64,000 bases of DNA, taken from NCBI GenBank assembly GCA_951406725.2, contig OX597819.1:20026001-20090000 (forward strand), written 5' to 3'. This document shows, piece after piece, positions 7,961 to 8,050 of this stretch. Numbering within the stretch: position 1 is the first letter of the stretch; each line of letters opens with the position of its first letter. The notes beneath the pieces were generated by a model. It saw nothing but the letters and a program-made list of their open reading frames with translations, was not told where the DNA came from and made no database searches. Made by a program: the position numbers and the translations under genes. Source of the stretch: Octopus vulgaris (lineage: Eukaryota).

Positions 7961-8050
7961 GGTCTGCAACAGTTCAACCCCTCCTCCACGGGGTGCATAC
8001 TGGGCAACGCGAGCACAGCAAGCCAGCTGTGCTAGGGTCAAACGGGGCTC
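7961..8050 (+). ncRNA. HDV-like self-cleaving ribozyme fold at the RTE 5' end (slightly decayed)
   Basis: P1 GGUCUGC/GCAUACU; P2 AACCCC/GGGGCU; P3 UCC/GGU around L3 UCCACGG; GGGCAAC after P1; P4 AGCACAGC/GCUGUGCU; C-AAA linker before the P2 3' strand. Confidence 0.75.

Follow-up and report, generated by a model that had tools for sequence, protein, structure and literature searches.

Introduction

RTE-clade non-LTR retrotransposons are established carriers of HDV-like ribozymes at their 5′ ends (Ruminski et al. 2011, as reported in sections of PMC6765202, PMC3774820 and PMC5786205). These elements share with the octopus family presented here the fold, its place at the first base of the element, the LINE clade and dispersed insertion. 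The octopus family differs by its cephalopod host, a U·U first P3 pair and four firm P2 pairs, and its ribozyme is a predicted one. The 5′ ribozymes of R2 elements (Eickbush et al. 2013, sections of PMC3774820) form the same double pseudoknot with a catalytic C, and their cleavage at the element 5′ end leads to variable, microhomology-type junctions. R2 is specific for rDNA, uses a restriction-like endonuclease and often carries a long J1/2, whereas the octopus family has an APE endonuclease, an 8-nt J1/2 and dispersed sites, often in microsatellites. In the twister T-variants of Schistosoma Perere-3 (sections of PMC8501958), the 5′ end of an RTE is likewise set by a self-cleaving ribozyme beside the target site duplication (TSD). 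This ribozyme is of a different class and its P1 borrows flanking sequence, in contrast to the octopus fold, which lies entirely inside the element.

The same genome carries RTE-2_OV, a brain-expressed RTE of Octopus vulgaris (Petrosino et al. 2022, sections of PMC9115989). Both elements have a single ORF with endonuclease (EN), reverse transcriptase (RT) and a C-terminal C2H2 finger, but RTE-2_OV has an AUG start and an xrRNA-like head instead of an HDV-like one. The available sections of PMC9115989 do not mention ribozymes, the word ‘ribozyme’ is absent from the main text of two octopus repeat papers, and no report of a cephalopod RTE with an HDV-like ribozyme was found in the literature searched, a coverage that excludes most subscription journals.

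We analysed a 64,000-nt stretch of O. vulgaris contig OX597819.1 (positions 20,026,001 to 20,090,000, hereafter the window), in which a reading of the sequence alone had proposed such a ribozyme. We conclude that a predicted HDV-like ribozyme, present at positions 7961–8049 as a decayed copy, forms the 5′ end of an RTE family and is likely to cut element RNA from read-through host transcripts just before its first base, G1. The sequence can adopt this fold, most copies of the family begin at G1 or G2, and the same core occurs in related RTEs.

Results

The window contains a decayed copy of a young RTE-type LINE

The element belongs to a young RTE-type LINE family and is a decayed copy with two internal deletions. 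It spans 7961 to ~10657, full-length copies measuring ~3.88 kb (the 3.9-kb family), and is organized as follows:

7830..7960, no strand: (TA)n microsatellite at the insertion site
7961..8049, + strand: predicted HDV-like nested double pseudoknot, exact 5′ end of the LINE, with predicted cleavage 5′ of G7961
8050..8084, + strand: 5′ UTR remnant, ending at a ~990-bp internal deletion (element position 124 joined to ~1116)
8083..10487, + strand: broken single ORF (remaining APE endonuclease and reverse transcriptase) with stops and frameshifts; RVT_1 E 3.8e-16 and 6.8e-10
10483..10657, + strand: 3′ end after a second deletion of ~196 bp, with short 3′ UTR and TCA-type tail
10657..10804, no strand: (AT)n microsatellite on the 3′ side

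Because of the ~990-bp deletion after 8084, the ribozyme lies artificially near the middle of the endonuclease in this copy. The family shows the usual RTE traits: a single ORF with APE endonuclease and RT, a short 3′ UTR, TCA/TAA simple-repeat tails and TSDs. Its protein carries an endonuclease motif, an RT (Pfam RVT_1) and a C-terminal C2H2 finger. The assignment to RTE made by the sequence-only reading was borne out by 43–46% identity over ~1,100 aa to RTE-2_OV, an element placed in the RTE clade in the available part of PMC9115989 (our own RT tree was built without an outgroup). The two families are not the same: besides this level of protein identity, there are 2–8 mismatches to the RTE-2_OV primers.

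The column majority of six copies gives one 1136-codon frame, from which copies diverge by 1.5–4.3% (window copy, 3.3%). The frame is interrupted in all 20 fetched copies, the longest reaching 639 codons, and an in-frame Met before the endonuclease motif is absent in 5/7 copies. The genome holds at least 313 candidates for the element 3′ end (40 scored) and at least 23 matches to its 5′ end. When the genome was searched by pattern for sister families of greater divergence and canonical core, only the same family came up; two new loci were left aside in this comparison. A PDB search retrieved L1 and R2 proteins only.

Elsewhere in the window, no host gene was recognized by eye in the ORF lists. 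The ORF list shows endonuclease-like and C-terminal CCHC-like frames at 15611–17532; judged by eye, these fragments resemble a decayed LINE of L1/Tx1 type. Frames at 37595–38021 and ~42400–42724 look like C-terminal parts of other non-LTR elements, possibly Dong/R4-like. Two-copy tandem repeats of 184 and 52 bases lie upstream of the element (5253–5629 and 7632–7744).

The first 89 bases can adopt an HDV-like fold

The predicted fold comprises the following parts:

7961-7967/7995-8001, + strand: P1, with a G1-U8001 wobble and a C7964·U7998 mismatch
between P1 and the P2 5′ strand, + strand: J1/2, 8 nt
7976-7981/8044-8049, + strand: P2, A7977·C8048 unpaired
7982-7984/7992-7994, + strand: P3, with U7982·U7994
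7985-7991, + strand: L3, a 7-nt loop
within 8002..8038, + strand: GG of P1.1 (8002-8003), G8004 and CAA; the window copy reads GG then GCAAC
8004/8038, + strand: G·G position
8008-8010/8035-8037, + strand: basal extension of P4
8012-8019/8026-8033, + strand: P4, perfect 8 bp
8039..8049, + strand: C8039, the candidate catalytic C, then AAAC, a 5-nt J4/2 and the P2 3′ strand (8044-8049)

Re-reading the window gave the same coordinates for P1, P2, P3, L3, GG/GCAAC, P4 and C8039 as the sequence-only reading, which had missed the basal P4 extension and the G·G position. Across 18 copies, the HDV-like order P1, P2, P3, P1.1, P4 leaves 87% of 484 cells paired, compared to 30–46% when slid, a score obtained with a structure derived from the same 18 sequences. 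The alternative register of Rfam itself (P3 as 7977-7979/7992-7994, or a 5-bp P3) was rejected: the conserved G of L3 is lost, a U at 7991 breaks it in 7/18 copies and the relatives described below disagree with it.

Other pairings compete locally. U7994 is able to pair with A7968, giving a longer P1, and in the subfamily with G7991 a 5-bp hairpin (7977-7981/7990-7994) occupies the P2 strand. When minimum-energy nested folds are computed, this hairpin is present in the window copy and in two others (L002 and L009). Nested folds showed no extra stability compared to shuffles (z −1.6 to +1.6).

Model searches retrieve the same family

The covariance-model search suggested by the sequence-only reading gave full-length alignments to RF00094, the viral HDV model, at 27.1 to 43.6 bits, all below its gathering score of 50. 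The window copy scored 27.1 bits (E 0.091), its match spanning the whole model; a better-kept copy reached 40.2 bits (E 3.2e-4) and also matched RF02682, below the gathering score (E 0.034). Among the 84 of 8130 genome-wide candidates that were scored, RF00094 gave three matches (43.6, 40.2 and 38.4 bits), all to this same family. The agreement with RF00094 and RF02682 covers the full model length, including the GGGCAAC junction and the C-N-A-A motif; the family stays under the gathering scores (best 43.6 of 50), and the model leaves P2 unscored and places P3 in a different register.

A descriptor that tolerated a single mismatch in each of P1, P2 and P3 gave one match in both strands of the 64-kb window, at 7961, and none in 30 window shuffles or 300 element shuffles. 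Since it was written after sight of the sequence, this result measures rarity and is no independent discovery.

The family begins at G1 or G2

The 5′ starts of 23 own-genome matches are distributed as follows: 12 lie at G1 and 6 at position 2 (three of the latter being one triplicated locus), 4 at positions 4–9 and 1 at 57. Ten of the 12 copies starting at G1 begin with GG, and 2 have a changed second base. TSDs extend up to the base preceding G1 in L026 (13 nt), L042 (12), L034 (11, one mismatch), L025 (10, low complexity) and L037 (12). In L033 the TSD ends 34 bases upstream and in L028 it overlaps positions 4–7. Three copies, including that of the window, sit in microsatellites with unreadable TSDs; the TSD of the window copy is hidden by the (TA)n microsatellite at its insertion site. 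The element boundary is thus at G1 as originally placed, with 18/23 copies starting at position 1 or 2 and TSDs abutting G1 in five; the same G begins 12/23 copies and position 2 a further 6/23. Contigs from runs with other organism labels also extend to 572, which is G1 of L026.

Conserved sequence upstream of other copies, which would have displaced the boundary, was looked for in the 300-nt flanks of 21 of the 23 copies. What they have in common is limited to simple repeats, one segmental triplication and inverted element body. Twin priming is established for LINEs, and G1 or G2 abuts inverted element body in 7/20 fetched copies; under twin priming, an inversion junction at G1 or G2 marks the end of the template RNA.

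Several derivatives were noted among the copies. The twin-priming-type inversions are those of L027, L030, L031, L035, L036, L038 and L039, a high share (7/20) of the fetched 5′-complete copies, the inverted part often ending early. A short ribozyme-headed derivative (L037:606-870) consists of the first 240 nt and a 3-nt-repeat tail between 12-nt TSDs, and L028 and L042 are bipartite derivatives with the head joined to the 3′ end (385 and 570 nt).

Most irregularities of the core are family traits

We compared 18 aligned copies, leaving out one duplicate and four partial copies. C8039 and A8041 are invariant (18/18), and the U20/G25-type L3, the P1.1 CC/GG pairs, the G·G and the catalytic C are retained in 16–18 of the 18. 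The G·G, C-A-A, P4 and catalytic-C layout of the HDV model is thus present in the family, most copies keeping the three basal P4 pairs and a G at 8038. G-U is found at the cleavage-site end of P1 in 11/18 copies. Two subfamilies differ at 7991 (G or U; U in 7/18) and in P4 length; by eye, pairing of the short P4 is maintained via G-C, G·U and A-U variants.

The sequence-only reading had ascribed the three mismatches of the window copy to post-insertion decay and expected a family consensus to restore P1, P2 and P3. This holds for P1 only; lack of restoration, which that reading had named as a refuting outcome, is seen for two of the three pairs. The pair 7964/7998 is C-G in 13/18 copies, with a G at the 7998 position in 16/18. 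The U·U at the base of P3 (7982/7994) is found in all 18 copies, and P2 position 7977/8048 is G-C in 2, A-U in 1 and unpaired in 15, so that P2 is composed of 4 pairs, one mismatch and 1 pair. The P3 U·U and the unpaired P2 position are therefore family traits, and only the P1 mismatch (U7998) is private decay. Such irregularities have precedents in active R2 ribozymes, which tolerate mismatches in both helices: P2 is mismatched in about one third of R2 ribozymes, and P3 in an active one from a wasp (sections of PMC3774820).

Changes to G at 8036 and to U at 8038 are unique to the window copy. Its three private alterations of the core probably make it slow or dead as a ribozyme; single P1 mismatches in R2 ribozymes are linked to cleavage loss in the same sections of PMC3774820, which suggests that the window copy is impaired. 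A-to-I editing of the P2 A·C pair (G there in 2/18 copies) was considered and found unsupported, the 4 A-to-G changes overall being too few to distinguish from chance. Covariation within the family was not above shuffles (332 of 500), as is to be expected of copies this young.

Related RTEs carry the same core with other helix sequences

An alignment of 18 homologues led to 80 metagenome loci, of which 38 had enough upstream sequence. A clear HDV-like core, picked partly by eye, was seen in 8/38 (L130, L131, L148, L152, L159, L164, L171 and L182). A strict, controlled descriptor matched 2/38 upstream regions compared to 1/760 shuffles; six of the eight cores were missed by it and seen by looser, uncontrolled scripts. 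An Rfam scan of 16 of the 80 loci gave no ribozyme match.

In all eight relatives the parts follow the order P2-P3-L3-P1-J4/2, as in the octopus family, with helices of other sequence. All share the 7-nt L3 type, its letters being identical to those of the octopus family in L152 and L171, which confirms the L3 and P3 register of the sequence-only reading. In L182, P1 starts at a microsatellite edge and J4/2 is 5 nt long. The first P3 pair is G-C (4) or A-U (4) in the relatives, in contrast to the octopus U·U, and P2 has 8–14 pairs in seven of the eight, compared to 4+1. The P2 duplex energy is ~ −8 kcal/mol in the octopus family versus −11 to −18 in three relatives. Since both P3 and P2 are weaker than in these relatives, the octopus family appears as a relaxed version of the fold. 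In a further RTE relative (L140:60-270), the HDV-like core appears, by eye, to have an extra hairpin inside L3.

Sister RTEs start with an xrRNA-like head

RTE-2_OV starts equally sharply with a different head. An xrRNA-like fold, with a three-way junction and pseudoknot resembling subclass 1a flavivirus xrRNA, is found at the start of RTE-2_OV, of a ~600-nt non-coding family and of four metagenome RTEs:

L077-L106 and L204-L253: xrRNA-like heads, own genome
L138:215-290, L165:90-150, L167:7-60 and L176:130-200: xrRNA-like heads, metagenome

A pattern for the RTE-2_OV head matched 1408 places in the genome (reversed control, 0), mostly of the ~600-nt family, and 4 of the 80 metagenome loci; it gave no match in the viral contigs scanned. 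In nine sequences, from which the structure was also derived, the three helices covary, both bases being exchanged in 6 pairs (0 of 500 shuffles). The Rfam flavivirus SLIV model RF01415 is matched over its full length by one copy (23.0 bits, E 0.067, cut-off 54.5) and weakly by a second (E 2.7). RF01415 gave no match to L078 or L176, and none among the 64 of 84,788 genome-wide candidates that were scored. Two defining features of subclass 1a xrRNAs (sections of PMC8374639) are retained in the head, namely a lone C separating P2 from P3 and the bases needed for a U-A-U triple. No paper on natural xrRNAs in retrotransposons was found in the literature searched.

Placing the two head types on the RT tree takes 4 changes, at least 3 of them forced. 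This tree has no outgroup and covers 43 of 79 segments, most contigs without 5′ sequence being left out; labels were given by eye and contigs are possibly chimeric.

RTE-2_OV itself is well represented in the assembly. The genome has 58 exact matches to an RTE-2_OV primer, and L208, L213 and L216 are full-length copies with an intact 1109-aa frame; the 2022 paper found no full-length genomic copy, according to the available sections of PMC9115989. The assembled RTE-2_OV transcript of that paper starts ~19 bases inside the element.

Discussion

The observations above are best accommodated by a self-cleaving head. Transcription would read through from a host promoter, and C8039 would act as general acid with Mg2+ in cleavage before G1, as the chemistry of the R2, RTE and L1Tc ribozymes suggests. 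By analogy with the same elements, the 5′-OH product starting at G1 would serve as template for target-primed reverse transcription, so that complete copies would begin at G1. In addition, folding of the head probably protects the uncapped end and probably assists translation of an ORF mostly without early AUG; HDV-like heads have been proposed to aid translation initiation (sections of PMC6765202). The master copy of the family would already have had the relaxed core, with U·U at the P3 base and four firm P2 pairs.

One alternative, which we regard as unlikely although the strongest of the competitors, is that the HDV-derived fold now cuts poorly and sets the 5′ end as a mechanical block to 5′–3′ exonuclease trimming of read-through RNA, the likely job of the xrRNA-like head in sister RTEs. 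The family-wide weakness of P3 and P2 is in line with it, as are the sister RTEs of the same genome, whose different fold aligns over the whole flavivirus SLIV model, and the interspersion of the two head types on the RT tree. The R2 ribozyme fold, too, protects against 5′ exonucleases according to a review (sections of PMC13708176). The kept catalytic C and active-site letters argue against it, as does the boundary itself: copies start at the paired G1, with TSDs abutting. An exonuclease that stalls should instead leave a few unpaired bases at the 5′ end.

Still less probable in our view is that the boundary marks the transcription start of an internal promoter overlapping the fold, the ribozyme being secondary or vestigial. 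A sharp 5′ end is also expected from a promoter, and G1 might in some cases derive from the cap, given that six of 23 copies begin at position 2. The trypanosome element L1Tc has a dual promoter-ribozyme. Against a promoter, G1 brings P1 to 7 bp and supplies the G·U wobble known from HDV ribozymes (G-U in 11/18 copies), and RTE elements with such ribozymes have no promoter of their own according to the review PMC6765202, in the sections available. That the fold arose by chance at the GC-rich 5′ end of a LINE, for which the E of 0.091 of the window copy by itself and the three permitted mismatches might plead, is highly improbable in view of the absence of descriptor matches in 330 shuffles, the E of 3.2e-4 of the better-kept copy, the same core in eight relatives and the exact coincidence of fold and element boundary.

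Returning to the self-cleaving head as the preferred reading, an octopus ribozyme-headed RTE is by itself an expected extension of a known system. As a speculative extension that we hold to be improbable, RTE lineages may exchange their 5′ heads as modules of two unrelated kinds, an HDV-like ribozyme or an exonuclease-resistant knot of the flavivirus type, and the relaxed octopus core would then be drifting from self-cleavage to a purely protective role. The finding extends ribozyme-headed RTE elements to octopus, where neuronal RTE activity is debated, and a ribozyme head would explain expression of the family from host read-through without a promoter of its own. With its natural U·U and short P2, the core lends itself to testing how much relaxation the HDV fold tolerates, and HDV-like and xrRNA-like heads in one genome provide a matched pair for how LINEs define and protect an uncapped 5′ end.
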